Assembly: GCA_002633005.1 (NCBI GenBank)
Contig: NMRA01000148.1
Span: 186,001-250,000 of the forward strand
Direction of reading: 5' to 3'
Length of the DNA: 64,000 bases
Source of the DNA: Phoronis australis
Taxonomy: Eukaryota; Animalia; Phoronida
Part shown: in pieces, positions 15,801-53,432 of the stretch
Position numbering within the stretch: position 1 is the stretch's first letter
Layout of the letters: every line of letters starts with the position of its first letter
Position numbers and translations under genes: made by a program
The notes under the pieces: generated by a model
Seen by the model: only the letters and a program-made list of their open reading frames with translations
What the model was told of the DNA's origin: nothing
The model's database searches: none

Positions 15801-16931
15801 ACTAACAACAAAACGGAAAAGTTAAAAAATGATCAGCATTCAATATTTTTTTTAAAAGAAATACAAAATATGTGGATGGCGTTAACGCAACAGTTGCCAC
15901 AGTTATTTTCACTAATTCTTGTTTGTTCTTTAGATGGATTCGCCTACTCAAATCAGTGCTAATACCGTGTCCAGTTAATTGTTATTGAAGTCCCTGAGAT
16001 TGCACTGCCGTCATTTTATGTTATGGCCTAATTATGAGTACCAGATGAGTTGACATGCCACATACAGTACAGTCAAGGACAAGTACTGCTAATAAAAGGA
16101 CAGTAATACATCCCAGTTCTTTTGTATTTGGTACCAATATTGAAAAATTGTTGATATTAAATTTCCAGAATCGGTATTGGTATTGCACCAGTTTCCAATT
16201 ACCATCAGTGGTACCCATCCCTGTAACTGACATAGAGTCGAATAGCTAACGATACTACACATAGCTACTCCGATGTCCTCAGCTCAACTCATGACCCTTC
16301 AATTTAGAAACTGACTCCCAATTAGTCAGAATATTACCATTACCTAATATTAGGCACTCACTGTAATGACTGTAAACTACTGACATCTAGTGAGAAAAAC
16401 AAGGCAACCATCCTGAATAGGTCATGTTTGGTTGAGCAGATACGTCCCCTTATATCCATTCAACATGACAGAGACAAAAAGCATCAGAATATATCCCATA
16501 ATGAATTGCAGATATCATGAGCAGAAGAGAAAAATAGAATAAGCTGATCATCTTAGTAAAAGTCCAAGTTCAGCCAAAAGCTTACTCTACAACTTTCCAA
16601 AGTTTCACTTTCAAATCCCACACCCTGAGATTGGCAGTTAGAGTAAATGCCCACCCCAACTTTTCAAAAAGCTGTGTTTAGTATTAAAACTGCCCATGCT
16701 CTGCTTGACACGCCCACCCAGATTTTGCAAATATTCAGTTTGAATGTCCTGAACATCAACACAGATGAATACACCAATACGACACCTGTAGGATGGGTTT
16801 GGCATAGCTTGGATTAGAGCTCTCCAGTTCTTTGTGGGCACACCATTGTCCAGAAGTTCTTGCAGTCGAAAGAAAATCATTGGAGGCATGTCGTTAATAT
16901 TTGTCTCCTTTGGAATGATATACTGATCCAT
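813..16931 (-). CDS. MALT1: MALT1-like type-1 paracaspase (DD-Ig-Ig-caspase-like); multi-exon, 3' end outside window
   Basis: Phase-consistent GT-AG exons: 16931-16786, 15325-15162, 13319-13148 (dup 10244-10073), 11943-11843 (dup 8868-8768), 7592-7435, 5263-5167, 4525-4292, 3834-3657, 899-813. Translation has DKVALLIGN, FGGHG (catalytic His), ILDNCR (catalytic Cys) and GNTVFFYAT, collinear with human MALT1 as recalled. Confidence 0.95.
1317..1401. repeat. 13-bp minisatellite (TACTGTTACTGAG)n, about 6 units
   Basis: Visible periodicity. Confidence 0.9.
1585..2408. mobile_element. Non-autonomous element with a long 5' hairpin and split inverted repeats (Crypton-like by inference)
   Basis: ATAGATTATTACATG/CATGTAATAATCTAT and TTATCTAGAGCCC/GGGCTCTAGATAA inverted pairs; TTATACCAC (about 1736) inverted at GTGGTATAA (about 2400). 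Confidence 0.5.
3066..3486. mobile_element. HINE-like non-autonomous element
   Basis: Starts AACTAG in an A-tract; ends with ACAGAC motifs and a short hairpin before GTATAAAA. Confidence 0.4.
3657..3834 (-). CDS. MALT1: MALT1 catalytic exon (His and Cys)
   Basis: VFYFGGHGFS...VFILDNCRM; cag/gtaagt sites. Confidence 0.95.
4292..4525 (-). CDS. MALT1: MALT1 caspase-like domain exon 1
   Basis: ...ATDKVALLIGNSKY...LGFKVVALINLS...EGVY; gtgagt donor. Confidence 0.92.
5167..5263 (-). CDS. MALT1: MALT1 Ig2 exon b
   Basis: IPKASASFGGVYYCVVTNMFGRCQTRSANLSI (Ig G-x-Y-x-C motif); ctag/gtaagc sites; not in ORF track. Confidence 0.88.
5326..6306. mobile_element. hAT-like non-autonomous element, 5-bp TSD GAGCA
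   Basis: TIR CATAGGCGGATTTAG/CTAGATCCGCCACTG; GAGCA on both flanks. Confidence 0.8.
7435..7592 (-). CDS. MALT1: MALT1 Ig2 exon a
   Basis: FIPRILSEPSDTIVLPNQPVKLSCSAFARPEPRYQWYLNNQPVDGATGPDYF. Confidence 0.9.
7766..7951. repeat. 60-bp tandem repeat x3
   Basis: TTAGGACAGATTGCCTCACAATAGGGACAT at 7801, 7861, 7921. Confidence 0.92.
8377..8617. repeat. 120-bp tandem duplication (single copy in the other duplicate, about 11572-11690)
   Basis: AAAATAACACGCTTTC at 8401 and 8521. Confidence 0.85.
8768..8868 (-). CDS. MALT1: MALT1 Ig1 exon b (copy B, duplicate or allele)
   Basis: Same sequence as 11843-11943; splice sites intact. Confidence 0.8.
9368..9585 (+). mobile_element. tRNA-derived SINE with L2-like tail (duplicate at about 12443-12655)
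   Basis: A box GTGGCTCATGGG, B box GCTTCAAATCC, TGTGAAAGCG...(ATT)n tail. Confidence 0.55.
10073..10244 (-). CDS. MALT1: MALT1 Ig1 exon a (copy B, duplicate or allele)
   Basis: Same translation as 13148-13319, synonymous differences only; splice sites intact. Confidence 0.8.
10589..10940. mobile_element. DNA-transposon-like insertion present only in duplicate copy B
   Basis: Similarity to copy A stops abruptly at TAATGTGA; the sequence continues GGGCTGTTCCAG with repeated CCACCC motifs. Confidence 0.5.
10940..11260 (-). mobile_element. Penelope-like element 3' end (GIY-YIG C-terminus), cut by the gap
   Basis: Minus frame 11259-11104: HCYQQCSFNDFAIIDQAVTTKELKIREALHISWCKPNLNRQLTHHRLSLLV*, the typical PLE endonuclease tail; hammerhead motif downstream. 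Confidence 0.8.
10977..11022 (-). ncRNA. Minimal type-I hammerhead ribozyme (Penelope-associated)
   Basis: ACTT-CTGAGGA-TGGTGT(loop)ACACC-GAAAC-ATGTC-AAGT: CUGANGA and GAAA cores, stem II GGTGT/ACACC, stem I ACTT/AAGT, palindromic ACATGT at stem III, GUC cleavage triplet. Confidence 0.75.
11843..11943 (-). CDS. MALT1: MALT1 Ig1 exon b (copy A)
   Basis: VENSGRYCCRIYNGNVSSVRFTDKCLVIVDPKP; cag/gtaag sites. Confidence 0.9.
13148..13319 (-). CDS. MALT1: MALT1 Ig1 exon a (copy A)
   Basis: PAQITKHPAPQAQISEGDELRLECNATGFPFPHFQWF...; cag/gtgagt sites. Confidence 0.9.
13408..13835 (-). mobile_element. Same Harbinger-like MITE family, truncated by the LINE (partial allele at 10333-10588)
   Basis: Reverse-complement similarity to 56570-56632 and 54285-54345. 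Confidence 0.55.
13840..15098 (+). mobile_element. 5'-truncated L1/Tx1-type LINE (RT C-terminal zinc-binding region, 3' UTR, A-rich tail)
   Basis: ORF 14092-14868 with FQFRLLHRII and CTFCKSETETLLHLYWQC (zf-RVT); AATAAA and A-rich tail at about 15081-15098; stop upstream of the ORF. Confidence 0.88.
15162..15325 (-). CDS. MALT1: MALT1 exon (death domain C-half)
   Basis: FFQVEQFASLYHCRQSPTEKVLYDLGSRGKTVEHLVSYLRTMEHEEALKLF; ttcag acceptor, gtatgt donor. Confidence 0.9.
16786..16931 (-). CDS. MALT1: MALT1 first coding exon (death domain N-half)
   Basis: ATG at 16931, acceptor at 16940-16941; MDQYIIPKETNINDMPPMIFFRLQELLDNGVPTKNWRALIQAMPNPSY; donor AG|GTGTC. Confidence 0.85.
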
Positions 16932-17529
16932 AGTGATATCTGTAATGTAATATGTTATAGTCAGATCACAAGGTGACTTAGAATAAAAAACAATGATAAA
17001 TGAACACTTTAGATTTCTCCCAAAAATGTTAACAAAAATATTCAGAAGTATCTCAGAAGAGCACATACTGGAAAACGGATTTACCAGGACTTACTTTTTT
17101 GTATTCCAGGAATCTCTAAATTTCTTTTCCATGGCACAGAAGTTAGGTAAAGTAATGCCACAATTAGTCTACGACCCACTACCAAACTATTTGTATATCA
17201 CACGGTGTCAGTGTAAATCTGAGTGAAATGAAAAGGGGAGATTAATGGTTAAATACTAATAATAAACAGTTTTAAAACTCACTGTAGCTTTATTTTTAAG
17301 AAAGCCTTTAGTCTTTATCATCAAAAAACAACAACTGGTTCCTACTGAAATGTTTCACATAAAGGTTCATGACTGTACGTCATCAATAGATTTGTACACA
17401 TATCACAGTAGACAGAACCCTTTGATAACACCAACACTGGTTGAGCGTCTTTTGTGTGGAACAAGACAATTACCACATTAGGGATTACTTCATAGCAATA
17501 AAAACGTGACATCATATCCCGTTTGTTGA

Positions 17530-23300: not shown

Positions 23301-26300
23301 GTGATCAGGCCTTTCAGAACATACGCAGCATACTTGTCAACGGGATTTCATTGTATCTTTCCTGCACAAATCTCCCTCAACAGGAATCCAGTTTATTTTG
23401 TACACGTGAAAACCACAAATCGGAAGTTGACCAGTGTTAATGAGCACGTAGCCAAGAAGCGTGCGCTAGGGCCTACTTATATGTGGGCCTGCTACTCTGG
23501 CAAATGAACTCTGATGACACGCATGAAACCTGGGTATATCCCTGCAATAAGTTCAAACACATGGAGAACACAAGGTCTGATTTCCCGAAGTTTGTCCATT
23601 TCTGTTACCGCGGATATTCAGCGTGACTTTAACACACGCTTACGCAAATGGTGCGTTACGATGCATTGTGTGATGTGTTGATCATTTTTGCTTGTGCCTC
23701 CCTTCATTCTGTTTCTCTTGATGTTTGTAGCCTGGTAGACATGGGCCTAACCAGCATCCCTCACACCCTCCTCTCACAGCTAACTAGCCTGCAAACGTTA
23801 GACCTCTCTGGGAACCAGCTCTCGGTGTTACCGCACAATCTGTGTCTGGTGCAGGTACGAACACTCACCGTCGAGGGCAACAAGTTTAAAGACGTTGAGT
23901 TTCTCCGCAGTTTCCCAGCATTGGAAGAGCTGTACATGGAGAACAATGAATTGACGGTATGTGCTGTTCTCAATCTTTATTCTTCACATTTTCTGAAGTT
24001 TGATTTTGAAAGCAGTCACGCAGTTGGAAATTGTGCATGAGCTGGGCTTAGTTACATGTTCAAATTACACATACTGTATTTCTTACTGGTTTGACAGAAA
24101 GTATCAATTGCATCCCTCTGCCCTGATCTGTTTGGTTAATGTAGTTGACAGGGGAGTATTCTCTTGGGTCTTCAACTATTAATGTTCTTGTCTACACACT
24201 CCTATTGTATAGAATTTCCAAAAACAACTAATCATGGTACTTAGGTATGTAACCTAACATGATTTTTTTAGGTTGAATATCTTGTATAACTTGTCATTTG
24301 AGAATGGAAGACGTTCGTCTTTCCTCCAACTTGTGTTTGACTTAAGAGATTGCTGGCCAATCACGGAGTGTTTTTTGTGACTCAAGGCTTAGTGAGATAG
24401 TCTGAATTGATCACTCGAGGTATCAAGACACCAACACTAAGCCAATCGCTAAGTGCTCCCATTCCCAATAATCCAGGAGTATCATCAGTTCAATACAAAA
24501 ATTGGACCTCCGTTATCACCATTAATTGATTCGCTTCAAGCAATCATCCGTTTGCACTTTCTGCACATAATTGTAACTTTATTTTCCTTGGATTTGTGTA
24601 TCGTATCTTATTGATTTTATTCACTTCACATGCCTTTCAATGTATTATGGTTGCTTTTTGCAGGCAGCTGACAAGTTGATAGCTGTCTCTTTGTGTCCCA
24701 AACTTCAAAGTATTAACAAGAGTCGAGCAGTGGCAGCGTATAAACTAGCCAACAACATCAAAGCTAAGTTAAAGCCTTTGGTATGTATTTTTTTGGTTTA
24801 GATGCAAGCTCTGTGTTGTCAAATGTATTTGCTCTTCAATTCTTGCTCTGATATATTCTCTTGAAATTTGTTACATGTGACAATTTTTGTGTAATTGAAA
24901 CAATCTGATAATACGTTTATTTTAAAGCGTTTGTTAAAACAAAAGTCAGAATTCAAAGTTTGCTGAAAATTTACTGCCTAATCTTGGGATAAGTTCTGTG
25001 TGCGTTTTAGTATAATCTTTTGAAAATCAACGTTTTCTTTTATGTTTATGTTTGGGACTCTGTGGTTTTTGTTTTATTATACAGACCATTAAACGTAATA
25101 AGACTGTGTACTGTTAGTTCAATGATTGCTTCAATGGAAAGATTTATAGCCGCTTACTTATGTTTGAAGTTTTCATTTCCAGCTTGACCTTATTAGTGTT
25201 ACGGTTTGTGCGGAATGATCACTCTAACTCACTTTGTTTTTAAAATATAACTTTAATGAAACTAATAAATCATGTTAAACTTGTTTAAATGAGAGTTCTT
25301 TATAAAGTTCCTGAAGCACCACACTGAACTAAATGTCAATGTCCCGACTCAAGTTAATTGAATTTAAAATTACTAGGCCCATGCTATACGATTACGAAAT
25401 GGTTCCACTTTCCACTCGTGATTTGTCCTCTGAAACTGAAGTTGTTACACTGTTCACAGTCCGTCGAACTCGTACGGTGTCGCACAACAGTTTTTAAAGC
25501 CTTTTATTTCATAACAGCTGAGTTGACTGTCCTTCTCACACCACAAATCCACCGGACAATATTCCTGACAAACAAAATTGTGATTTCTTCTTGCGTCTTG
25601 TGCGTCTCCTTTTCTTTTCTGTGCGTGCGACTTCCCAGAAGTTTTACCAGCGCCACCTGGTTAATATCGTTTGCTACAGCGCCACCACTCTCCTACGCAG
25701 CGAGTTAATGTTCACCAAATCCGATTCCTGACAATAAGTCCTGTGTGCAAGTTCTGGTTCCCATTTTGTCAAGGGCCATACTCTCAGTTGTAGCTATTTT
25801 TCACCATAATTTTGACTGATTCACACTTCCTTAAACTGCTTCATGAACATGAGTCTTCATAGGGAATGTGGATAGCTGTTCAATTCCTGTTTGTCTTGGT
25901 GTTATAAAAGGCAAGATCATCCTTACAGTTACTAGTCGCAGTCTGGACATATCAGCATTAACATCATGGACCTTTGGTGGAGTTATTCCTGTCATACTTT
26001 CTACTGTTTTTAAAAGTATCACTGCACATAGGAAGGCTGGAAAACATAATGTTTTCCGCATGTTTTCAGATCTTGAAAATCTGGGATGGGAAGTACACAG
26101 AAACATTCAAGCAAGGTCGAAGCCAACAAGAAGAGTCTAAATGCCTTGATCTGTTTGTGGAGGAAATCAACAAATTGTCTGCTGTCAGCGTCAATGAGGG
26201 GCTTTTTAAATATAGGGATTTTCTGGTGAGGAACAAATGATGCATTGGTTTTATGTGTGATCAGACTACAGTAATCTTACTTAGCATACAATGTTATCGA

Positions 26301-29300
26301 TAAGTAAAATTTTATTTTGTCAAATTTCTTCACAAAAGTAGAGATTACGGAAATTTTAGCCCATTACTATTATGGTTTGCAGTGTGTAGATGTCATAAAA
26401 TAACATTAGATAAATAAAAGTTTCCTTAACAGGTAACAAGTCTTTGGAAAATGGAAAATAACAATTTTGGCAAATACGTTTTGTGTGAAATAAGTTGGGA
26501 ATTATTGCAACAAGGCAAACAAAGTTCTGACAGTATTAAAACGATCATCTGATGAATGTATGCTCTTTTTAGATGTCGAGACGTACATATTAGCAGAATA
26601 TCATGGGGAGATAACTGCTATCAGTTAATTGCAAAGGAACTAGCCTGTACTGAGCGACTTGAACTTTACTTGGTGGTGTTAGTGTGACAACAGTCTTACC
26701 TGTAGAAATGCATGGAGTGAGACTGGCATTTGGAAAACAATTCTCCATTAGTACATTGAGCCAAAATAGTTTCACTTCTGCTTTGCTGGTACTCCTTCAA
26801 TTTATAAAATGTTAATACCAGGTTAAAAGATTGGTTTTTGCACCTCCCAGGTGACTCAATTCATTGAAAAAAAGAGGGCCTCCCCGGTGAACCCATCTCC
26901 AGCTAAGAAACTAAAGCCAAATCAAGACAATGGCGCAAAAGGCCGAGTGAAAAAGAAAGCAGCTCATAAACTGTCGAAGAAGAATGCTAAGGAGACCAGT
27001 GATGAAGAGATGGAAAATAAAGAGGAGTTGTCGGACGAAGCCATCGCGAGACTGGTGAGTGTATCCTGGCTCGTACCATCTGGAAAAGGCGTGGGAATCA
27101 TGGAAAAACCCAATGTACAAATTTGACCACTTTTGGCATGTCATGTCACTTAAATTGGTGATTGGATTCGTGTGAAATTTTAGAGATTTCATGCTCTATT
27201 CAAACCCCTGTTAGGAATTCTTTTTAAAGTGTTCCATTTTTATGCGATTTACATGAAAAAACTCTGAAGAGTGAAACGAAAATGAATGGATAATTCTGAA
27301 AAATAGCAACTCTTTTTGAGGTTTCTTCTAACATGAAAAATTTAGTCATGTTATTGGTTCCATTGTTTTGTGATGAAAGTGCTACCCACTTTTGTGCTAA
27401 ATTAAAGACACAGTCACGTGACGTAAAGTATTAATTCTTCTAGTAAATTTTTGTAGGTCAAAAGTGTCTGTCAAAGTCGTTGTCATCATCAGTATTGCAG
27501 AGAATTAGAAGAAGGGTCATAGTAGTACTTGTTTCATGATTGATCTGTGTTGAGTGCTTTTAGTGTCGTGGAAATGTCTTGGAATCTTGGCTTTGTTGTT
27601 AAACCTGTATATTACTGTATACTTGTATAATTGTTATTTACTGGGGCCCTAGATGTGCACCCCTTTGTTTCATATTTACGTAAAAATATTAAGCCAGTTT
27701 ATAATACTTAGTTCAGTCTTTCAAAAAAGAAAATCCACCTGAGACCTTCAGAAATAAACCAGGATTTTTACCCCATCACTTGACACGTCACGGCGTTTCC
27801 AGCTTTGTTTACCATTGTTTCCATCCCTGTGTATGAAATTTGTTTGAAATTGATACTGGCGGACATTTTTTGTTCTTTTAGTCAGTAAGCACCATTCTCA
27901 AAATAAATCAGGTGAAGACCAGTACCAGCTTGCTTAAGAAGTGTTCCCTTGGCAGTTATGATGTATGAAACATTAGTCATGTGACATTGTGTAACTGTCA
28001 GTATTGTACACCTTGTTCCAGTCTTATCAACATGCTCGATATTGAAGGCAATGGTAGGACTGGCCATTTTTTTCAAATACCGTACAAGGCAAAATTAAAA
28101 GGACAAAATACTGTACCTCATGACAGCTAAATCTGTTGAAAATTACTGATGATGATTATTTAGGTGGCAAAATTGTAATTACTGGATGGCTTAGCTGCCA
28201 TACCAACTTTCATGTAAATTCCCCTAATTCCCCTTCATTCTCAGTCATCAGGGGAGACTACTCTGACGGTGAAGTCGGCTTCCGCCCAGCCATCGTGATG
28301 GGAAATTACAGTCGTTTTCTCCGAATACTTTTGGCTTGTAGTGTAAATGTTACTCCAATCGGCTTCTGCCCTGCCGATGTGACCGGGAATTCAGGTCATT
28401 TTGTCTGCATACTTTTGGCTTGTACTGTACATGTCTCTCCAATGACCTATTTCCTTGACTGAGTGCTCTTACACTAACTTATTTCGTCAAATGAACATTC
28501 ATCTTTGACCTACTTACTCAATAACAATTGTTGCTGTGACGTTGAATGAATGTAACTGCAGTGACATATTTCATCAAATTAATGTTAGCGGAATTGACTT
28601 CTTTGCTCAAGTAGCCATCTTTCTTAGTTGCTCAAAATTTCTCATTTTACAGGCTCCTCTCCCCGATTACGAACCGTTCCTGTTTCTGCGGTGTCACTCA
28701 AAGGACAACGACCCCGGCGACTGTGACACGAAAGTGTGGCGGGCAGAATTCGAGCCGAGCACGGAGCGGCCAGGAGAGACCACTTCCATTGTAGCCACAT
28801 GCGGCGGCGACTGCCTATGCCTGATTGACTGCAACACGGGCAAACTGATGAAGCGGTATAGGCAGCCAGGAGATGTGAGTAGGCGCAGTGAATGTTGTGT
28901 ACAACCCTAGAAAAATGCACGAATTAGACTTGAGTTGGAATATCGTCTTTATGAAACAGCTGATCAGTTTCGTATGAAACTTTCACTGTTCTCCAAAACG
29001 ATCTATGGAATTGTTTTTATAAAGTGTTCCATTTTTACATGAGGGAGTGTCAAAAGGCTGACAGTTATAATCTATAGTTTTGACTTAATGCACAGACTTG
29101 TCTATAAGGTTCTACATAATTTCAAGGCAAGTTTGAATGATAGGATTCTGACCAAACTTCGCATTCCAATATCCCGTCTCTGTAATCACCTTGGGTAGAG
29201 ATTACTGTAAAAAAATTTTAATTCGGGATCAAAAATAATTGTCTTATTTTCCACAGTTACTTTTGCTCATGTTGTTACAACACAGGAATATTACAATGTA

Positions 29301-40999: not shown

Positions 41000-42800
41000 C
41001 AGCTGTCAGTGGGAGGGGCTAGCAGTGGAGTCTGGTGCAGTGCTCATGATGTGATGCAAGCTGGTAAAGAGGTGTACCTTAGGTGGTTAAAATCTGTTGT
41101 GTCACTCTGCGATATTGTTTCCCTCCTTATCCCATTTTGTCAGGTGTATTACTGTTGGAAACTGATGATTCACAATGCAACTGAGGGATCATTCACAAAT
41201 ATCGCCATTTTCATGGGTCTACAAAATGTATGGTTTTCCTAAAACTCAGAAAGTGATGTAGAACAAAAAATATTGATACTTTTGTAAACTAGTATTTATT
41301 GAAATAACCTGGATGTATGTGGTAAACCTTAATGCTTGTTTTTGTCTGTAAGATAAGATAAAATAGTTAACGATTCTGGATACACTAATGTCTTAAAAAA
41401 GTAAAAAAACAAGGCATTGAAATAAGTCTTTTCGCGTTGGCCATTAATGACATCAGAAGCAAGCTCTACCCTGTCCCACTCTTTTCCTTTGTAAAGCATA
41501 CGTTTTGTATTCTTGGAGGACATGGCAACAATTGTGGATGGTTTCTTATATGAATTGAACTGGTAAAACAAGGTGAACAGATTTTACACTTTTGAATTTA
41601 AGGTTCTACTCTATGGAATTAGTGCGGTGTGTCAGATAATGGGATCTTCAATTTTTGTAGCAAATGTACGAGTTTTTTTTGTGCATTTTTTACCTGAAAG
41701 TAAAACTGTTGTAATGAAATATCAGGTTATGTCAACAATAATGTAAGCCAACTGTTTTGTTTGTTTTTGTTTTACTAATTATGAAGTAATTCTTTGAAAT
41801 TTTTAACAAAACCGAATCGTAAATGAAGCTGTTACCTGGTTTTACTGGAAGTGTTCTCTGTATTCATTTTAGCACCTTAACAGTCGTGGTGTTCCAGGGT
41901 TCATTTTACATTGGTTAAAACCAAGTTTCTGGGTAGATGTTCAAGTGTTGGGTACAGGACTGGTGTAAACTGTATCCCCTGCAGATGGACTGCTCAATTT
42001 CAAATTTTAGCTGTTGTTCGTTTTAAAGTGGCATTTGTAACTGTATAATAACTTAATAGATAATAAGTCTAATGCTCTAACTTGGCTGATTGTAAAAGGG
42101 AAAGTGAGTTTTGTCGATGTAGGTATGTTAACTTGTGGTTCACTGTACTGACTAGTTGTTTTATATTACACGTAACATGTCGATCAAAAAACACATTTAC
42201 CATTTGTATGAAATTTTGTCAAGGCATCAGTGTCCTGGTGCAAAATACATCAATTTGATCCATGTTTCATATGCAAGGGCTTTTTAAGATGGTAGCAAAC
42301 AAGTTTGACCTCCAGCTCACCGACACGAGTGGAAAATTTTTGTGCCATGATGAAGGTCTGAAAACAATTGTTTACATTTTGCTTGGGTGACCTATCAATA
42401 CAGTTTCAGTTGATAACTCGGCACTTCAACTTGTGTTTTTACCATTAAGATTTTTATTTCAGTGCTCTTTGTCACATCTGCAGTTTTAGCAAAAGCAGTA
42501 GAATTATTATCAAGTAAAAATTGTATACGACTTCCAATTTCCTACAAATTGGTAATGATTTACATTCTATTAAAAGAATATGCCTGTGTGTCATACTCAG
42601 AAACATAACCACATTGAGCCAGTGATAGTGGTTTAGGTCAGGCCACGTGGTAACATATAACGTAGCTTGAATAAGTGTAATTCACTGGCTTTTTCATGGG
42701 CATTTTCAGACCAGTGGTCACTCTGGGAATGATTTTGAGCTGTTGTGGTTCAGACTTGTACAAAACTATTTGTAATCTCAAAATGCTGGCACCTTTTTCA

Positions 42801-42806
42801 AATAAA
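42801..42806 (+). terminator. Candidate poly(A) signal for LRWD1
   Basis: AATAAA followed by U-rich sequence about 1.8 kb after the stop. Confidence 0.35.
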
Positions 42807-44456
42807 TACTTAAAATTTACTCATTGCATTTGTTTTGAAATTATTCTCAAAATTTAAATGTGGATGTCTTGATTGATTTAACAAACATTCAAGAAGACAT
42901 CACAGGTTGAAGAACACACTTTATTAAAGCAGCAAGTTTTTATAAGGTGTGTTGGCCTTGGTTAACAAATTAAAACTGAATAGAACCATCCCGGATTACA
43001 CAACGATACTCTAATCTTGCTGTATTTACTCCACTATGCTGTAAATGCCCGTCAGGCACATTTGCCACTGGTGTTTCACATGTTATTTGTTGTTGTTTGA
43101 TTCTTACAAGTGTTTCTCCACTGCATCACTTTATTTATCCAATGCCACTACTGTGCTGTGTACTGCATCTCCGATGTGAGAAAGTTTGATAAACTGGACA
43201 AAACCCATGGATGCATGATCTGAAATTCTTTGCCTTCCTGACATCAAGGAGAGGCACCAAAATGAGGTCACGCGCTTTCCTGTCTCTGGGACAAAGGACA
43301 GTTCTATCGCCATGTACTCTGGGACAGCCCTATTGCATGAAACTGTTTAAGATACTTTTTTGCCTACAAGCAATATCCACCAAGTCACAAGGGTCCCGAA
43401 GTTGGAGAACCAGTTTGATACCTGTTAGACAGTGTGGTTTTCAAAATCCAGGACCCTGTAGGCACTATTGCCTAATATTTCAACATAAAAGCAGACAAGC
43501 AATTGATAAAAGTGAGTGATTGTCCCTAGCAAAACTGCAACACTGACTGAAGCTCCAGCCATAATGTACAGGTAGTATACCTTTCCCAACATAACATAGT
43601 CCAGTCAAACTGCGTTATTACGATCCTGGCTGGCTATTATCTAGCCACAGAGTTGTACAAAAGGAACGGAGAAAATAAAGAACGAAATATTTTAGGTAAC
43701 ACAAATTCTTTGTTTTGTACAATTGAAAAAATAACATGGTTCGACTGAATTAGATATCCATTCTGCAAGACAATTTGTAAATCAAAGTAAATGATTTAGA
43801 TGGCATCAGAAGGTATTTAAGTTTCTGAGACATGGTTTCTGTTATGGCAGTACTCTCACTCCAATATTCATGTAATTCTATGAAATTCAATTTTTATGTG
43901 GGAAATGTTAGTAGCATATAAACACAAAATAGTGACATAGCTCAGTTGCACTAGTATCTTACACTAACCACTGTAGTAATACTGAAAATAGGTTCATGGC
44001 ACAAGAATCATAATTGCTCTGCACCTACTTTGTAAGCAGTGTTGACCGGTGAGGGAGCTTTCACATACTACATCATGCACTCTGCTACTTTTAACCCCTC
44101 CCCATCTAGCCCCCTATTACGTCATCAGAGCCAACCCTCCCCCGTTTAAGCAATGATGGAGTGGGTCTGTTGTTTATGTACATGTTTATGAGATAAGCCA
44201 AGTGAAACATTATCAAATCTTGGAAGTGGTGCGTCCTGGTTTTGGAGATTAATCAATTCCAAGTGAATGTGAGCCAGTTTCCCAATGATGTGTACTGCGA
44301 TGTAGATATTCTAATAAACTACGAGTCTAACCCCCCCTCCCCGTCACAAGTCATCAGCTTTTCCAAACCCCTGTCCTCTAGTGATGACGTAACATGTGAA
44401 TGCTACCTTACACTGAGAAGTTCTACCAATAAACTGTAGGTCCAACTTAGGTACTT

Positions 44457-44654
44457 CAGGGCTTGGAATTTTCCTCTTTTAACAGGGTTTTCTCTTTTTC
44501 AGTTTTGATTTCCTCTTATTTAATTTCTAGTTTCCTCTATTTTATCATTGACTTTACAACACAAAAAATATTTCCATCACACAAGACTATTTGTGCAATG
44601 ATACATCATCTGGAAAATTTTCCTCTTTTTTGTCATTAGTCATTCCAAGCCCTG
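44457..44654. mobile_element. hAT-like MITE, 6-bp TSD GTACTT
   Basis: TIR CAGGGCTTGGAAT/ATTCCAAGCCCTG; GTACTT on both flanks. Confidence 0.8.
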
Positions 44655-45894
44655 GTACTTGATACCAAAAGAGAATAGTCAGTATACCTTAGATAATGGA
44701 ATGTTAGCTTACACACCCCCAGAAGCTTCGAAAGATGTAATGATAAGTTTGTCTGTATGCTTGATGTGAAAGAAATACAATGTTACATACTTGGCACCTT
44801 ATCACCCAAAGCAAACATGTATCCTCTTGATAATGAAATCCACACTAGACAATGTTTTAGACATGCAGCTACAATGTATTCTGCTACATTACAGTTGGAT
44901 TCTGAAGATCTTTATAATACCACCAAGAACATTCATCTTCAAATTAGGCAGAAATGCAATATCTTGTGATACTCAAATGTTACATCCAAGACACAACCAC
45001 CCATGCCAATCACTACACTGCACTTTTATGAATGTCATTGTGATGAAAGTATTTCAACGTAAATTAATGGTGACCTCAGCAAAGCACTTATGAATATAGT
45101 ACAAAGATTGTTCTGCAGCAACATGGAATAAAATCATCCTATCCGTGGAATTTAGCAAAAATTCTTCACTTAAGGCCACAGCACGGTAGAAAAAAGACAA
45201 AAAAATTGTATCTTGATGCAATAGCCAAACAACATCTCTAAAAGTTTGACCATTTGCAGCAATGATGAAAGACACTGAAACACAGCAAAATGACAAGAAT
45301 AGCCACCACTTATGTCCCAGACTGAAGTATCTTTACCACTCATTGCAAAACGCACAATATGGCACAGCAAACGGATCAGTTACAACAACACTGCCACCTC
45401 TTGGATTACTTTGAACAAGAGGAATACAAATAGTTACTTCAAGACTTTCAAAAATAAATTGCGTTTTCTCTCCTTTCTTAATTCACCCCATTATGAATGA
45501 ACTGTTCCCCTTCACTTGTTCAGTAAGCCCCCTGGGGTGGAGAGGTCTTCCACACTCTCATTTCAATTCACTCGGTATTAAAAAGCTGTTATCTAATACC
45601 AAACGAATACGTAATTACTAAACATTGCCACCTGGTGACATCCCAGTAAACCACATATTGCGAATTTATGATCCAGGAGGAACGCATAACCTTCGTTTCA
45701 TGAAAATATGATACAAAAAGGGCTGATCAAGGCTTGAACAACGAAAATTTCATAAAACATTCAGTTTTCTGCAAAACTTAAAAATTCACTGTCAAAATTT
45801 TGAGGCTGATCCCGTACGTGTTTACATAATTTATGAACCAAGTTGTAAACAAACATTATTTAACGTATTTGGTGACTGAGCGAGACCTCCACCA

Positions 45895-45900
45895 TTTATT
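45895..45900 (-). terminator. Candidate poly(A) signal AATAAA for the C19orf53/DOK transcript
   Basis: First AATAAA downstream of the C19orf53 stop, 10 nt after the DOK stop. Confidence 0.55.
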
Positions 45901-45910
45901 ATCCAATATC

Positions 45911-46564
45911 TCAGTAAGAATGCTTCGTCAATTCTTCGGTGGCCGTAAACACACGCTTTTGAATCAGCTCTGCTTCATATGTGTTCAAGATGAACGTTCC
46001 CTCGCCTGTCTCACACGATCTACCACACTCGAAGGTGAATCTGGTGTTATCTCCGCCAAATCGCCTCAGCGATGTCAGCGGCCAACTTGCCACTTTCTTA
46101 GAGTTGAAGTCCTTCAGAATAATTTCAGCACTCGATACCTCCAGTTTGCTCTCCCCACTGTGATGGAGCAGACAATTCGGTACCAGAGACACGTGAAATA
46201 CGTTGTGTAGTCGTTTATCCCCGTGTAACGTACGTCCCTCATCTTGCCATCGTAGACGCCGTAACAACTGTACCCACTGACTAGCCTCCTCATTTGTCTC
46301 ACAGATGAAAGCTCTGTTCTCATTGCTCTTCAAACTAACAACAAATTTTTTAGTCGAGGAATCCATTGAGACATTTAACACATCTTTCATGGGTGTAATT
46401 TTACCATTCATCTGATAGGCTGCTGTTGTTTCATCCATGTACCTCTCTAAGCGGTTAGGTCCCCGGCTGCTCGCTTGACACAATACGAGCCAGTTTTTTT
46501 TCAGTCTTCCTAGTTTTTTAACAAAAACGCACCCTTCATTGAGGATGTCTGTAAAGTCAGCCAT
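45911..46564 (-). CDS. DOK4/5/6-like docking protein (PH + IRS-type PTB), intronless, 217 aa
   Basis: WLVLCQASSRGPNRLERY and WPLTSLRRFG..TRFTFECGRSCETGEGTF match DOK4-6 motifs (WLVFKKASSKGPKRLEKF; WPLSALRRYG..FTFEAGRMCETGEGLF). ATG at 46564 with in-frame upstream stops. Confidence 0.92.
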   Translation of the reverse strand: MADFTDILNEGCVFVKKLGRLKKNWLVLCQASSRGPNRLERYMDETTAAYQMNGKITPMKDVLNVSMDSSTKKFVVSLKSNENRAFICETNEEASQWVQLLRRLRWQDEGRTLHGDKRLHNVFHVSLVPNCLLHHSGESKLEVSSAEIILKDFNSKKVASWPLTSLRRFGGDNTRFTFECGRSCETGEGTFILNTYEAELIQKRVFTATEELTKHSY

Positions 46565-46606
46565 TCTCACTGTGAACGACACAGATTCTCAGTAAGTGGC
46601 AAAACT

Positions 46607-46720
46607 TTACTTCTTGTCCGAAGGTTGAGATTTGATTACACTGAAGGATTTAGCTTCCACGCCGCTGGCTATTGATGTCAGCTCTGACTCAATGTTGGTT
46701 TTGATGGCTCTCTCCAGGGA
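46607..46720 (-). CDS. C19orf53: C19orf53 exon 3 (coding part)
   Basis: ctttctcaactgcag acceptor; TAA at 46609-46607. Confidence 0.85.
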   Translation of the reverse strand, partial: SLERAIKTNIESELTSIASGVEAKSFSVIKSQPSDKK

Positions 46721-49700
46721 CTGCAGTTGAGAAAGGCAAGTGTTCTTAGTAGATGGCATGTCACAATTTGAAATAATGACTATCACATAATAGCAGGCTC
46801 AAAACAACCAACTTACAGGGTGCTTTATTTCACTGTACAGTAGCTTTATGAAAAAGAGCACCCACGACTGCACTGCAAATGGTGCGCTTCTGGAAGTGTA
46901 CTTGTATCATAACAAAATCGCAATTAGATGACACAGAATATATTGAACCGTTGTCTCTCAATATTATTTCCCAAATTTCATAAAAACCCATCAAAGAACT
47001 CCAAAGATACAAAGGCAAATTGCCATTGGGAACCATGGCAGTGGTCAAATCAGTCCATCTGCTGTCAAGTTAATAAGAATATAATTACAAAATTTCAAAA
47101 ACATCTTGCGAGGTGTTTAGAAGATACAACATTACTTTTGCATTACTTATCCTTCAGGGAAAAAGTTAAAAATTAAATTTCAATTGTCCGCCATAATTGT
47201 GTCGTCACTTGTTGAGATTTTACTGCAGTACCGTAGTGCATTATGTTATAGACAGGCTGATGAACACAATGCAATGTAAAAAATTAAAATTTCCTTTAGA
47301 AGGCACAGCAGTAGATCTATATATGTGGCCCATCTGATACATGATCAAGATCATGTGGCAGGTAGTATTACAAAAGTAGTCCTGCACTTTTCTCATCTGC
47401 ACACGTCATTGGGTTCGTAAAACATAGAACAGAATCAAACGGCATTCTGCCCCGCCACTGATTACGTCATAGCCCTGGTACGTAAATCATGGTTTTAACT
47501 GTGTTAAACCTTGATACTATGAATTAACATAAATCGTTAGTTGTGCAGTGTAAAATCTGTCACTAAAAGCAGCATAAATGGAAGTTGTCCACCTATTAAT
47601 CCAGATTATAACTTATCCAGTTATAGGTTTCATTCCATCACTATAGCTCACATTGAGACCTAAACTACCCTGCCAGAGAGTTACTACCGCGGTAGATAGA
47701 CTTACTACAATCAAGTGGTTATCATATTTTAAACCAATTGCTTCCATGTGAACTGTATGAAATCAATACATCTTACCTGTTTCACTTTATTGGCTTCAAC
47801 AAGCTTGGCCTTCTTTGGTACAATATGCCTCTCTGGAAAATATGTAAAACTTTGATATACAGGAGTACAGCGCACCGACAGTGAGTTATGTGTTCTTGCC
47901 TTCACCCGAGTGGCGACTGCACTGTGGACTGACTGAACTACACTACGGGGCAAAAGAAAACTTGCTAAATACCGTTTCCGAGTTAAGCAATCAATTCCAC
48001 CTTCAGATTTCATTCCACCGTACAAGCAGTAATACTGCCTACGAGTAAGTGTAGTGTCCAAGACCATCCAATCTATACCCATGCCCATGGCTCTTGGAAA
48101 TGGTCATCATTCATCAAGCCTTCAACTCAGTCAAGGCATGGCGTAGCCTTGGTACAAAACTGTATATAAATATACAGCTTTGCACCGATGTGGGTAAAAA
48201 AGTGGTAAGATAAATTCTGACACAAAATTAGGGTCATTAAAAACTAGTCTTCCTTGAATGAACTAAATTATTTAACAGTGTTGTAAAAAATGGCGTTCTA
48301 CCATTATTCTGCTGCTTAAGTTGTGGAGCGATCTTTAGCGACGGCTTTCGGCACCATGAAATATTGCGTCACCTATTATCCACTTTCTTTTTCACGAGGT
48401 TGCGTACATGTCACAACAAATTATCGGAACTGGTTTCAATTCATTATAAGTATTTAGAATTTTGATACCAAAAAAAACAAATTTAAGAAGAAATTTTGCT
48501 GCTGCCAAGCTATCATCATCTTCCGAATGATGCCGCAAAAATTTAGGAAATGGCGCGTGCGTGTGTCACGAGCGTACTGTTTTCAGTACGACGACATAAC
48601 ATTTATTTGTTACAAAAGGCGGAGGATTACGCAAGAAAATGACGTTTATTAGATTGTTTTCTACTTAAATGGCTGTAACGGGCAAGGTGAGTGTCGTTTG
48701 ATTCCCAGATTTTGCATGCACCCCGTCCGGTCCTTAGCTCTACTTGTTGATACAGGTTTCACGGCCAGTTGACGAGCACAACTACCCTGGCTATGTGCAA
48801 TTTCGGAATCTATGAAAGAAAAGCACACAGTGGTACCTAGCTGTATTTTGACGAAAGTCTTCATACAGCTAGCTGGCTGGCTAGGCATGGCGTAGGCAAT
48901 AACATCACCCTGGATGCCGCAGGCATAGAAGGGGCGATGGTACATCCCCACAAAAAGTTACGAATTTCAAAATACAGGAAATAAAATCAAATGAAACATG
49001 CATACATGCACATGGAGTTATAAAGAACTCATACCATAAGTCTGGAGATGATTCAATCAGAAAATTTGAACAAATCAATGAAAATCTGTTGCGGTTTGCT
49101 CAAGTTTCTCTTACCGGGTGCCATGTTGAGGAAGTTACGTGAAATCACGCATGTTGACGAATAAAAAGTTCAAGGGACACAAATCTTACAAATTTCATCT
49201 GATACCTTCTCATGCTATTTTGCAAGTGTCACGCGCTTCGCTCAGTCTCGCGCTAGCCTTTGCCTAACTCATGTGACTCAGTAGACATACTTTGTGGTTA
49301 TTGCGCACATGGTGAAAAAGTTAACAGCAACCATGAAGTGGAGTTGGAATTCTTCGCCAAAGTCACTTTAATTCTCAAAACTAAACTTCATCGAAGATAT
49401 GTCAGTATAGAAGTAGAAAGAACCAATGATGAAAGTTTACAAGCGCTTTTTTAAATGGTAGTTTTACGTGTGGAATGTATAAAATTTTTAACGAGGTGAA
49501 TACTCAAAATCGGTGGCCGGATTTGGCCTGTAGCCCGTTTAAAATACATGTAATGAAATGTGTACAGAAAGCAAATGGAAGTATTGTAGCCCCTAAATGG
49601 CCAACCGAGGGGCTACGTGTTGCCTAGCCTTTGCCTAACTCACATGACTCAGTTGACATACTTAGTGGTTATCGCGCGCATGATGAAAAAGTTAACGGTA

Positions 49701-51787
49701 ACCAAAAAAGTGGAGTTTGGAATTCTACATCAAAATCATCTTAAGTCTCACAACTAAGCCTCATCGGAAATATGTGTAGAAGTAGAAAGGTCCAAATGAA
49801 GAAAGTAAGCGCTTTTTTAAGTGATAATTTTAACCCCTATCCTGCGCTAGGCGAGGTCAGCCGACATGCCAATTATCCTATTAAAATGCATTGGGTGTAC
49901 TCAATCGACTATAATAAGTTACAGCTGGGCTGCACTAGGAGAGTGCACTCACCCCAGGACACTTGTGATTTTCATTCAGAAATTGTAAGAGCCCTGGAAT
50001 GTTGTTTAGATATGTGACCATGAGTATTCCATACTTCACAACTTCCTCTACTGTTCTCCAATTTAAACCATATGGCTGTGATTACTAGTTTNNNNNNNNN
50101 NNNNNNNNNNNNNNNNNNNNNNNNNNNNNNNNNNNNNNNNNNNNNNNNNNNNNNNNNNNNNNNNNNNNNNNNNNNNNNNNNNNNNNNNNNNNNNNNNNNN
50201 NNNNNNNNNNNNNNNNNNNNNNNNNNNNNNNNNNNNNNNNNNNNNNNNNNNNNNNNNNNNNNNNNNNNNNNNNNNNNNNNNNNNNNNNNNNNNNNNNNNN
50301 NNNNNNNNNNNNNNNNNNNNNNNNNNNNNNNNNNNNNNNNNNNNNNNNNNNNNNNNNNNNNNNNNNNNNNNNNNNNNNNNNNNNNNNNNNNNNNNNNNNN
50401 NNNNNNNNNNNNNNNNNNNNNNNNNNNNNNNNNNNNNNNNNNNNNNNNNNNNNNNNNNNNNNNNNNNNNNNNNNNNNNNNNNNNNNNNNNNNNNNNNNNN
50501 NNNNNNNNNNNNNNNNNNNNNNNNNNNNNNNNNNNNNNNNNNNNNNNNNNNNNNNNNNNNNNNNNNNNNNNNNNNNNNNNNNNNNNNNNNNNNNNNNNNN
50601 NNNNNNNNNNNNNNNNNNNNNNNNNNNNNNNNNNNNNNNNNNNNNNNNNNNNNNNNNNNNNNNNNNNNNNNNNNNNNNNNNNNNNNNNNNNNNNNNNNNN
50701 NNNNNNNNNNNNNNNNNNNNNNNNNNNNNNNNNNNNNNNNNNNNNNNNNNNNNNNNNNNNNNNNNNNNNNNNNNNNNNNNNNNNNNNNNNNNNNNNNNNN
50801 NNNNNNNNNNNNNNNNNNNNNNNNNNNNNNNNNNNNNNNNNNNNNNNNNNNNNNNNNNNNNNNNNNNNNNNNNNNNNNNNNNNNNNNNNNNNNNNNNNNN
50901 NNNNNNNNNNNNNNNNNNNNNNNNNNNNNNNNNNNNNNNNNNNNNNNNNNNNNNNNNNNNNGGCATTTTGGAAACGAACATTTGACTGACAAGACCGCAA
51001 TGGCTCACCTTTGGCCTATTTAAAAATTATTGAGGTTATGGAGTCACATCACCTAGCGAGCGCGGTAAAAGTTGGAGCGTGCGCAGTACAAAAATTTTGA
51101 TTTCACGATTTTGGGAACTGAAATAGGGACTGATCGAAGAAAAAGTTTCATAACGGGAGTATTTGTTCGAGTTGGAAGGACTTAAACACATCGACAACCT
51201 CCTAAGGTGTTCCTCTATGCGCAAAAGGTATTTATAACAACGTGACTTTGATGGTTTAGTCGGTGCGAGGCATAATTCGCCGAAAAGCTTCCGGCGTACA
51301 GAGCGCCTATAGCCTCTACATCGCCTCTGGTTCGGGCCAACAGAGGCGATGGTCATTGCCTATCTGAATAGATTAGAGGCTCAGCAGGATAAGGGTTAAG
51401 TGTGAAATGTATTTTTGAAGAGGTGAAAACTCAAAATCGGTGGCCGGATTTTATCTACTGCCTGTTTAAAATATATGAAACTAGTATAGAAAGCGATGGG
51501 AAGTACTGTAGTCCCTAACCGGTCAATCGAGGGGTTACGTGTTGCAAAGGCATGGCGATGATGGCTGATGGCTTGCGGATGATGACAGATGAAGTTTGGA
51601 ACTTCCTGGTTCTGAACCCATCTTCTCTAAATACCTGTCGACTTGTCTTCGTTTTAAAATTTACCCCATTCTATACTAATTTACACAACTGCTTACGTCC
51701 AGGTTTAGCTCCTTTTTTCTTCTTATCGTGCTTTGGCTTCAATTTCGGTACTTTAGAGGCTTTTACCTTGAGCTTTCCTTGTGCCAT
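46607..51787 (-). CDS. C19orf53: C19orf53/LYDG10 (UPF0390) small basic protein, 86 aa, 3 exons
   Basis: Exons 51787-51697 (MAQGKLKVKASKVPKLKPKHDKKKKGAKPG), 47832-47777 (QRHIVPKKAKLVEANKVKQ), 46720-46607 (SLERAIKTNIESELTSIASGVEAKSFSVIKSQPSDKK*). Canonical phase-matched splice sites; resembles human MAQGQRK...RVIAPKKARVV...NLEVGIRKKIE. Confidence 0.88.
47777..47832 (-). CDS. C19orf53: C19orf53 exon 2
   Basis: ttttccag acceptor; IVPKKAKLV; CAG|GTAAGA donor. Confidence 0.85.
49834..51395. mobile_element. piggyBac-like non-autonomous element spanning the N gap
   Basis: TTAA-CCCCTATCCTGC...GCAGGATAAGGG-TTAA; interrupts the second unit of a tandem repeat. Confidence 0.7.
50092..50961. other. Assembly gap
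   Basis: N run. Confidence 1.
51697..51787 (-). CDS. C19orf53: C19orf53 exon 1
   Basis: caaaATGG start; GGAC|GTAAGC donor. Confidence 0.85.
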
Positions 51788-53432
51788 TTTGTTCAGGGAA
51801 TGACGGGTAATAATCCAACTTGGAATAACTCATTCACTTAAAGGGGTCGCAAGTCTCCATTTTTCAAATATCAATCATGCTTGCTAGTTATTTTTTGTTA
51901 GACTCTATCAGAAAATTATAAAATTGTTACTAGAGTCAACATGTACTTTGCAGCAAACTATAAATAAAATAGTCTAGGTTACTATATATAGCCATAATCT
52001 ACTCACCCCCAGTGGTGGAATCGGTAACAAAAGAGAGTGCTTCGCTGCTGGTAAGTCGGATTATTCTTTCCTCAAAAATTGATTTTGTAGTTGTAGAATT
52101 GACTGGTAACGTGTTTTACAAAATTTGCTAACTTGTGTATCTCTGGACTGAGGGACATTTGACTCATCTGTTGCCAACCATCAGGGCAGAAGTATCCGAA
52201 GGGTCCGTGAGGCTTGAGAGGAGTGGTACCCGGCCGTACCGTGCCTTGGGAGGCGACTGAGTTACCCAGCTAGCATATCATCACGACCTCGGCTTTTGTC
52301 TCTAGACCAAGATGGTTTGTTGATATAGGAACTATTTGACGTAGGCCTCACCAAGATTCTAGTCGAGTCATGGTCGAGTTTAATGCAATATCTGATGGTG
52401 AAACGAAATTTCTCCAAGTATATATATTGTTGCTTTGTTTTTTTTTTTGAAGTTGTTTTGTTTAGTTCAGGTAGCTGGTTGCATTTTTTGTCCAATGAAT
52501 GGGAAAATAATTCACAACATGTACCTGGTTAAGAATTCAATGCCTATATTGTTTTGAGGCAAAATCAGGCAATAGGTGGCGCTGTAGCAACCATTTTTTA
52601 AACTTTTCGTGGAGCTCAACGCTCTTCAGCTCCGAAGGATTCATCTGATATTTGGTGTGCAGATAAAATCTCATCGAGGGCTATCAGGAAGGAGTGTGTT
52701 GTCATTCTCGGTTTGAGTTAACGGCCATTCTCAAGTTATTCGAGATTTCCCGACGACTGTTCTTTTTGTTATGATTGATTGTCTTTTCACGCGCTTGGCC
52801 CAAATACATTTTCTGGCTTCAGAGCGTTTGTTTGTATGCATGGTAGAGGTAACAGTTTTCATCCCATTGACATAAAGTTCACACACACACACATCATGTA
52901 CTATATGTTTTGTCAAACTCTGTGGCACTGTGACAGCCTCTTTTCGATTTTGTTGCTTTGCAGAGCTCTATAGCTCTGTGGTCCTTCGAAAGACATTCTT
53001 CACTGAGAAATTTGGTATGTAGATAGATCGAGATCAAGCACTCTCGTGGCTGATTCTTCGGTTTCTCGCTTTGATTTACTGTTTTCAACTTATTGGAGAT
53101 TGAATGATGACTGAGATCTGTTCCTGGTACATTATTCAGACTGCAGCACAATCATAGTATCCATCTCAGGGTTTAAGATCAACACAGTTACGGTACTATA
53201 CCAGCTGTCCTGTCATTCGCACAACCAATTGATGTGAAATTTACAAATAGCATGTAGCTCTTAACTAATTCAATCTTTTAGTGCTTTCACATCCATTTCT
53301 CGATTGTTGCAGTTTGTGGAACTGTAACTTCGCGGTCTCCAAAACGATTCTTCTGAACATGGTATGTGGATAGATCTGGTCAATTGCTGTCTTTGTTCTG
53401 CCGGTTTCTTACTATGACTTGTAAAGTCAGTT

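Follow-up and report, generated by a model that had tools for sequence, protein, structure and literature searches.

In a window of 64,000 nucleotides (nt) from the phoronid Phoronis australis (assembly GCA_002633005.1, contig NMRA01000148.1, positions 186,001 to 250,000; all positions below are counted within this stretch), two intact and non-overlapping reading frames stand one behind the other on the minus strand. The first encodes a small basic protein of the C19orf53 family and the second an intronless adaptor of the DOK4/5/6 type, and both very probably lie on one spliced RNA. The reading put forward here, to which a probability of about one half can be given, is that the DOK protein is made from a bicistronic C19orf53 mRNA by leaky scanning, its frame being likely an old retrocopy within the last exon. 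According to this mechanism, the spliced C19orf53 RNA would continue through a 42-nt spacer into the intact DOK frame, and most ribosomes would start at the C19orf53 AUG, while a minority would slip past it and, after scanning 300 bases without an AUG, arrive at the DOK AUG. A tail-less PH-PTB adaptor would in this way be supplied broadly and at a low level. The parts of the locus are, in the direction of transcription:

51697 to 51787, minus strand: coding part of exon 1 of C19orf53/DUF2462; DUF2462 profile 1-29; seen as loose RNA ends behind exon 2
47833 to 51696, minus strand: intron 1, GT-AG, repeat-rich, with an 870-base N gap at 50092-50961
47777 to 47832, minus strand: C19orf53 exon 2, 56 nt; DUF2462 profile 29-47; stranded depth and a joint to exon 3
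46721 to 47776, minus strand: intron 2, GT-AG, 1056 nt; joint in a contig of set X1 and in reads of runs X2-X4
46607 to 46720, minus strand: coding part of C19orf53 exon 3 with the TAA, beginning of the shared last exon; Atlas DUF2462 0.92; depth 12-20
46551 to 46610, minus strand: predicted hairpin of 23 base pairs; -24.4 kcal/mol, z -3.7, 0 of 200 shuffles as stable
46565 to 46606, minus strand: spacer, 42 nt, without ATG, with a second in-frame stop (TGA) and three read differences
46570 to 46571, minus strand: acceptor-like AG, 5 nt 5' of the DOK ATG; no joint to it among those listed
45911 to 46564, minus strand: DOK4/5/6-type frame, 217 amino acids, PH and PTB domains, intronless, without a C-terminal tail
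45300 to 45910, minus strand: 3' untranslated region (UTR), at least this long, from stranded depth
45895 to 45900, minus strand: AATAAA, at most partly used; depth drops by about 40% across it, yet goes on in three runs

The C19orf53 frame is joined from three exons (51787-51697, 47832-47777 and 46720-46607) over two GT-AG introns into 86 codons and ends at the TAA 46609-46607. The DOK frame opens at ATG 46564, in frame with C19orf53 (303 nt), and runs for 217 codons to the TGA 45913-45911. The three-exon structure, the C19orf53 stop and DOK start positions, the length of the spacer, the integrity of both frames and the place of the first AATAAA had been given in an earlier sequence-only account of the locus, the original prediction, and all of them held on recheck. 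Its argument from the polyadenylation signals is weaker than it seemed: neither AATAAA nor ATTAAA is present in the spacer or the DOK frame, and an AATAAA (45900-45895) does follow 10 nt beyond the DOK stop, but 38% of 706-nt minus-strand windows likewise lack both hexamers, which places the absence at chance level. A variant hexamer, AGTAAA, missing from that account, overlaps the C19orf53 stop, and the next canonical signals downstream are located at 44524 and 43135. At the other end of the gene (minus strand, 51788-51880), a reading frame of 26 codons begins at an ATG located 46 nt 5' of the C19orf53 start and overlaps this start out of frame. A TCATTC, an initiator-like motif, is found 16 nt upstream of the C19orf53 start.

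The RNA evidence comes from a contig set, X1, presumed to be RNA, and from three stranded raw-read runs of one study, X2 to X4, of which 18-19% each was analysed (reads of 151 nt). Their sequences disagree with that of the window at a few percent of positions, which points to other individuals or to a very closely related animal. All four sets contain the exon 2-3 joint: it was found in a contig of X1 and, for X2, X3 and X4, in 13, 16 and 20 reads, respectively (in X4 placed four bases off). Loose read ends behind exon 2 correspond to the end of exon 1 in 21 reads of X3 and 44 of X4; the X2 counterpart is not among the 24 of 119 loose ends listed, and the remainder may include ends carried by fewer than 20 reads in X2, 17 in X3 or 28 in X4. 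For X2, X3 and X4, the depth is 18, 14 and 15 in exon 3 (46670; pooled 47), 24, 12 and 16 at 46600 (pooled 52) and 23, 14 and 22 at 46577 (pooled 59) in the spacer, and 27, 12 and 33 at 46550 (pooled 72) and 30, 16 and 37 at 46442 (pooled 83) in the DOK frame. The pooled depth upstream of the acceptor-like AG amounts to 82% of that just inside DOK, and the exon 3 depth to 57-65% of the DOK depth. The reads of exon 3, spacer and DOK are all on one strand, with zero antisense, and intron 2 beside exon 3 (46761-46810) has a depth of 3, 0 and 0; therefore, the exon 3 RNA arrives spliced. The joint table has four rows and none in the spacer, no pile-ups of read beginnings or ends are listed, and the X1 contig 46423-46603 runs through the acceptor-like AG and the DOK ATG unbranched.

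The simplest reading of these data is that a single last exon carries the end of C19orf53, the spacer and the whole of DOK, and it is likely that individual RNA molecules carry both frames. The earlier proposal of a common terminal exon on one transcript is supported, by the joints and by an unbroken stranded depth of short reads, whereas the length proposed with it, about 1 kb, is not. Beyond the AATAAA the depth goes down by about 40% in the three runs, yet it reaches 45300 (14, 15 and 56), the downstream edge of the stretch examined for RNA depth, so that the RNA extends at least 600 nt past this signal. Taken with the coding parts alone, this makes an RNA of at least 1.5 kb. The AATAAA is therefore not the sole 3' end.

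Several minor signals were observed in the introns and around exon 2. A candidate extra exon at 46900-47059, suggested by stranded depth, was rejected, as at fine scale it consists of short repeat fragments with many unlike flanks; such fragments in intron 2 (about 46860-47200) draw reads from elsewhere. At 47211-47610 the sense depth of intron 2 rises up to 5, essentially in X4 only, and fades away from exon 3, which is either a retained intron or another RNA form. Exon 2 (47777-47832) has a depth of about 2.5 times that of exon 3 in X4 and 1.6 times in X3, an excess that may reflect 5'-end coverage bias or an unseen alternative exon. In intron 1 (48000-50080), dispersed repeats collect reads on both strands.

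Concerning the encoded proteins, the first frame gives a small basic protein that matches PF09495 (DUF2462) exon by exon; the original prediction supplied the family names C19orf53 and LYDG10. Exons 1 and 2 match adjoining parts of the Pfam profile (1-29 and 29-47) with E 0.02 each, values that, the exons being scanned singly and not as a whole protein, fall below the curated cut-off when taken alone. For exon 3 the top Atlas cluster was DUF2462 (0.92), and a search for longer proteins using the exon 3 stretch gave no match. The DOK frame contains an IRS-type PTB domain (E 1.5e-17) preceded by a weak PH domain (E 0.006) in Pfam. Of the solved structures, the DOK5 PTB domain matches it best in sequence (E 4e-18), and the best named relatives of the frame are the 'docking protein 5-like' proteins of amphioxus and chiton, at 42% identity. 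The predicted structure reaches a predicted local distance difference test (pLDDT) value of 91.6, and its PTB domain superposes on that of DOK5 (PDB 1j0w) at 1.1-1.2 Å. In a quick tree the frame falls within a group of 43 rows that includes named DOK5/6 proteins, with a Shimodaira-Hasegawa-like approximate likelihood ratio (SH-aLRT) support of 99, on a long branch (1.08) and without a supported sister.

DOK4/5/6 proteins carry a C-terminal tail with tyrosine docking motifs. The frame described here shares with these adaptors the N-terminal PH domain and the IRS-type PTB domain, nearest to that of DOK5, and differs from them by stopping a few residues past the PTB helix, without the tail, by having no coding introns and by its long branch. 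Other short DOK5-like proteins exist, with 238 amino acids in Alosa and 230 in Argopecten; proteins of 230-257 amino acids (P0031, P0098, P0150 and P0001) were noted in scallop, oyster, a cephalopod cluster and herring relatives.

The differences between the reads and the window bear on whether these proteins matter to the animal. In the DOK frame, all nine listed differences are synonymous (P 1e-6 to 2e-5), and so are all three in C19orf53. In the X1 contigs, for which every difference is listed and which form the unbiased part of the test, 552 nt of the DOK frame show seven differences, every one of them synonymous (P 2e-5 to 2e-4); the P values are calculated for 22-29% synonymous sites. 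The listed differences amount to 40 of 938 and 40 of 89 rows, and private differences of X2-X4 in 45911-46360 may lie beyond these. The three differences in the spacer neither create an ATG nor remove a stop. Since all listed DOK differences are synonymous, the DOK protein is under selection, as is C19orf53, and selection on the frame in turn indicates that it is very probably translated somewhere. A DOK frame both untranslated and neutrally evolving had been named by the original prediction as fatal to its proposal; the frame is not neutral.

How a second frame in this position would be reached is suggested by the stretch before it. The 300 nt between both starts hold no ATG, an absence with P 0.01 in dinucleotide shuffles and shared by 0.2% of windows of the genome, and the first frame, with 86 codons, exceeds the limit of about 55 codons beyond which reinitiation is said to fail in the available part of one report (PMC4705651). 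Leaky scanning is therefore favoured. This mechanism, together with AUG depletion, is described for algal bicistrons and for stoned and Snapin of Drosophila, in the portion available of a further study (PMC11892635). A fusion protein made by stop-codon readthrough was ruled out by the two stops, TAA and TGA.

The origin of the intronless frame was approached through 33 DOK loci from metagenome contigs, which are distant and often short. Among the loci with interrupted matches, a splice donor after a C[DE]S motif was found in 5 of the 33 loci (L007, L008, L011, L029 and L032), and a donor at an FExGR motif in 6 of the 33 (L007, L010, L014, L022, L028 and L029). Both donor sites occur in vertebrate-like and in non-chordate-like loci, that is, in two distant clades, and both shared intron positions are empty in the DOK copy of the window. 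Given introns in the relatives and none in this copy, retroposition is likely, and the frame would be an old retrocopy landed in the last exon of C19orf53. In 42000-45910, a pattern search for a poly(A) remnant did not turn up an A-tract. Of 153 DOK relatives, none showed a DUF2462-like stretch, a weak test as C19orf53 diverges fast. The pairing of C19orf53 with DOK is probably lineage-specific.

A number of observations weigh against a bicistronic mRNA read by leaky scanning and against a retrocopy origin of the DOK frame. No read holds the exon 2-3 junction plus the DOK ATG, which are 156 nt apart for reads of 151 nt, and the continuity from stop to start is given as depth, the spanning reads not being individually counted. 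In X2 and X4, though not in X3, the depth in DOK is approximately twice that in exon 3, and a minor DOK-only or fusion RNA entering at 46569 is possible, with 24 of 119 loose ends listed. The three runs come from one study, with less than a fifth of each read, and the RNA nature of X1 is a guess. For a Met-free protein of constant sequence, the lack of an AUG in this stretch is nothing unusual (P 0.5). The C19orf53 AUG stands in a strong context, with A at -3 and G at +4, in contrast to the weak ones of the algal bicistrons. A hairpin of -24 kcal/mol over the DOK AUG could hinder scanning. On the side of origin, intron loss in place instead of retroposition is possible, and C19orf53 was upstream of DOK in none of the 33 metagenome loci (best tblastn E 2.0), a weak neighbour test given loci that are distant and often short and a gene that diverges fast.

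The predicted hairpin between the two frames deserves separate consideration. Its 5' arm begins at the C19orf53 stop and covers the AGTAAA; its 3' arm takes in the acceptor-like AG, a portion of the DOK start codon and the sequence as far as codon 5. The stem persists in a 600-nt context and is kept by all three read alleles (-20.2, -20.3 and -25.7), and 2 of 1733 windows of matched GC content fold as well. Such a structure may protect the RNA from cleavage and splicing by hiding a poly(A) hexamer and a cryptic acceptor, and in a bicistronic mRNA read by leaky scanning it may in this way help to keep the RNA whole; it may also be a relic of an insertion, or chance. X4, which has the strongest hairpin allele, shows the lowest spacer-to-DOK ratio (22/33), contrary to masking. 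No Rfam match was obtained in 42000-53000 at E 1. A second strong hairpin was observed within the DOK frame at 46087-46018 (minus strand; -25.7 kcal/mol), where GC is higher (0.53).

The same hairpin opens another route to the DOK protein on the same bicistronic mRNA, namely reinitiation gated by the stem: a ribosome terminating at the C19orf53 stop would melt the 5' arm, the DOK AUG would be freed, and the small subunit would scan the 42 nt. This route is doubtful. It would account for a stem that reaches from the stop codon to five codons inside DOK, with a stability matched by so few comparable windows and retained in three alleles, and it would also agree with the strong context of the first AUG. 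The spacer further matches the preferred reinitiation distance of 39-42 nt, which the available part of one paper gives for a single mRNA, that of p53 after a premature stop (PMC10275272). However, the hairpin was identified post hoc in a window centred by hand, the z of the opposite strand is similar (-3.8), an equally strong hairpin lies inside DOK, and 43 minus-strand clusters fold at -22 or better. One read difference breaks a G-C pair with zero compensatory changes, and an ungapped inverted-repeat finder does not list the stem. TGGGA, the reinitiation motif of caliciviruses, was not found in exon 3 and the spacer. Reinitiation is, moreover, usually poor after 86 codons, as far as can be taken from the part of the report at hand (PMC4705651). 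A bolder version, in which a retrocopy survives solely as a second frame, coupled to C19orf53 by a stop-to-start hairpin in which poly(A) hexamer, cryptic acceptor and DOK AUG all stay hidden as long as no terminating ribosome opens it, is unlikely.

Another explanation, likewise doubtful, is that the long RNA serves mainly as C19orf53 mRNA, while the DOK protein comes from a minor RNA spliced to the AG before its ATG, with exon 1 or some unseen exon joined in cis or a leader joined in trans. A join of exon 1 to this AG would be in frame and would fuse 30 basic residues to DOK; the AG is preceded by 9 of 15 pyrimidines, compared with 11 of 15 at the two real acceptors; the X4 depth rises from 22 to 33 across it; and exon 1 lay outside the reference stretches, so that such reads would appear as loose ends, of which 24 of 119 are listed. 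Against this, the depth just 5' of the AG and inside DOK is 23/27, 14/12 and 22/33 in the three runs, 23% of 42-nt stretches would contain an AG of this kind by chance, and no joint of exon 2 to it is among those listed, a join that would meet a stop at once. The X1 contig also shows no branch there, though contigs drop rare forms. Two abutting or overlapping mRNAs, with C19orf53 ending at the AGTAAA over its stop and a DOK promoter in exon 3 or the spacer, are very unlikely. The X1 contigs do break between 46603 and 46619, with a word depth of 68 for C19orf53 against 21-35 for DOK, but they break elsewhere too in single-exon sequence; no raw-read run has a depth dip in the spacer, pile-ups of ends are absent from the listing, and the depth of exon 3 does not exceed that of DOK. 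It is hardly credible that DOK is an untranslated retro-pseudogene in a 3' UTR, or that stop-codon readthrough is the only way to reach it. The absence of introns, the long branch of 1.08 and the shared frame with C19orf53 (303 nt) would suit such a view, which has to contend with nine of nine synonymous differences, an intact predicted PH-PTB fold and two stops to pass.

Other features were recorded elsewhere in the window. On the minus strand, 3656-17090 contains caspase exons (3656-3925 and 4275-4535), immunoglobulin (Ig) exons (7396-7626 and 10072-10290) and an exon at 16638-17090 for which no Pfam match was found; this layout suggests a paracaspase of the MALT1-like type. Two near-identical frames about 3.07 kb apart (9962-10333 and 13034-13408), the first of which overlaps an opposite-strand Ig exon, represent either a tandem duplication of the Ig exon region or an assembly artefact. 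The plus strand carries LRWD1 exons at 23633-28910 (LRR_LRWD1 and WD_LRWD1 matches) and, at 14077-14868, a 263-codon fragment with a zf-RVT domain, the remnant of a non-long-terminal-repeat retroelement.

The value of the locus lies in adding a bicistronic gene supported by RNA and by selection in a non-model animal. It suggests a route for the expression of a promoterless retrocopy, which would consist in landing just behind a short, AUG-free housekeeping frame, and annotation pipelines are likely to keep one of two such frames and drop the other. If true, the gating of a second start by a hairpin would be a cellular mechanism that we have not found described, and hairpin coupling would represent translational coupling of bacterial style on an animal nuclear mRNA, in a compact locus of 86 codons, 42 nt and one hairpin. 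Without hairpin gating, the case belongs to a well-known class and is of moderate interest. In the titles and listings searched, with subscription journals and bioRxiv supplements outside the search, no paper on the C19orf53-DOK pair was found, and no title in the literature listings described a retrocopy-derived or hairpin-coupled cellular bicistron.

Comparison with known systems places the pair as follows. In trans-spliced operons of nematodes and tunicates, close same-strand genes are transcribed into precursors that are cut into single-gene mRNAs. The present locus has in common with them the close same-strand genes and an AG just before the downstream start, but its spacer depth, at 82% of the DOK-start depth, is not that of a precursor resolved by leaders, although a minor share of the RNA may be. 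The premise of the original prediction that bicistronic mRNAs are rare in animals does not fit Drosophila, for which the available part of one survey gives 159 dicistronic pairs, 45 of them exclusively dicistronic and most pairs coding for unrelated proteins (PMC4528330). Spacers of tens of bases are found there as well, in CG9960-Snapin (18 nt), CG31917-Tfb5 (54 nt) and CG17344-CG43731 (40 nt), whereas the portion at hand of its File S1 has no 'Dok' or 'chico' rows among the pairs (PMC4528330). As is very probable for the phoronid, unrelated frames share one processed mRNA, with leaky scanning given for stoned and Snapin in the accessible text (PMC11892635); the phoronid pair differs by the strong context of its first AUG and by a hairpin across the spacer. 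The green-algal bicistrons likewise have no AUG before the second frame and a short spacer, but their first frames, according to the same excerpted source, combine weak contexts with short leaders and show conservation between species (PMC11892635). Human RPP14/HTD2 also places a small housekeeping frame first (124 amino acids) and a longer unrelated frame in the 3' UTR (168 amino acids), with leaky scanning and/or reinitiation thought to operate, as stated in the parts available (PMC4705651; PMC6825209). There the HTD2 protein is documented, whereas translation of DOK rests on selection, and the second frame in the phoronid is a signalling adaptor and likely a retrocopy. The class of bicistronic mRNAs is a known one, and the C19orf53-DOK pair adds to it a real, expressed and selected locus.

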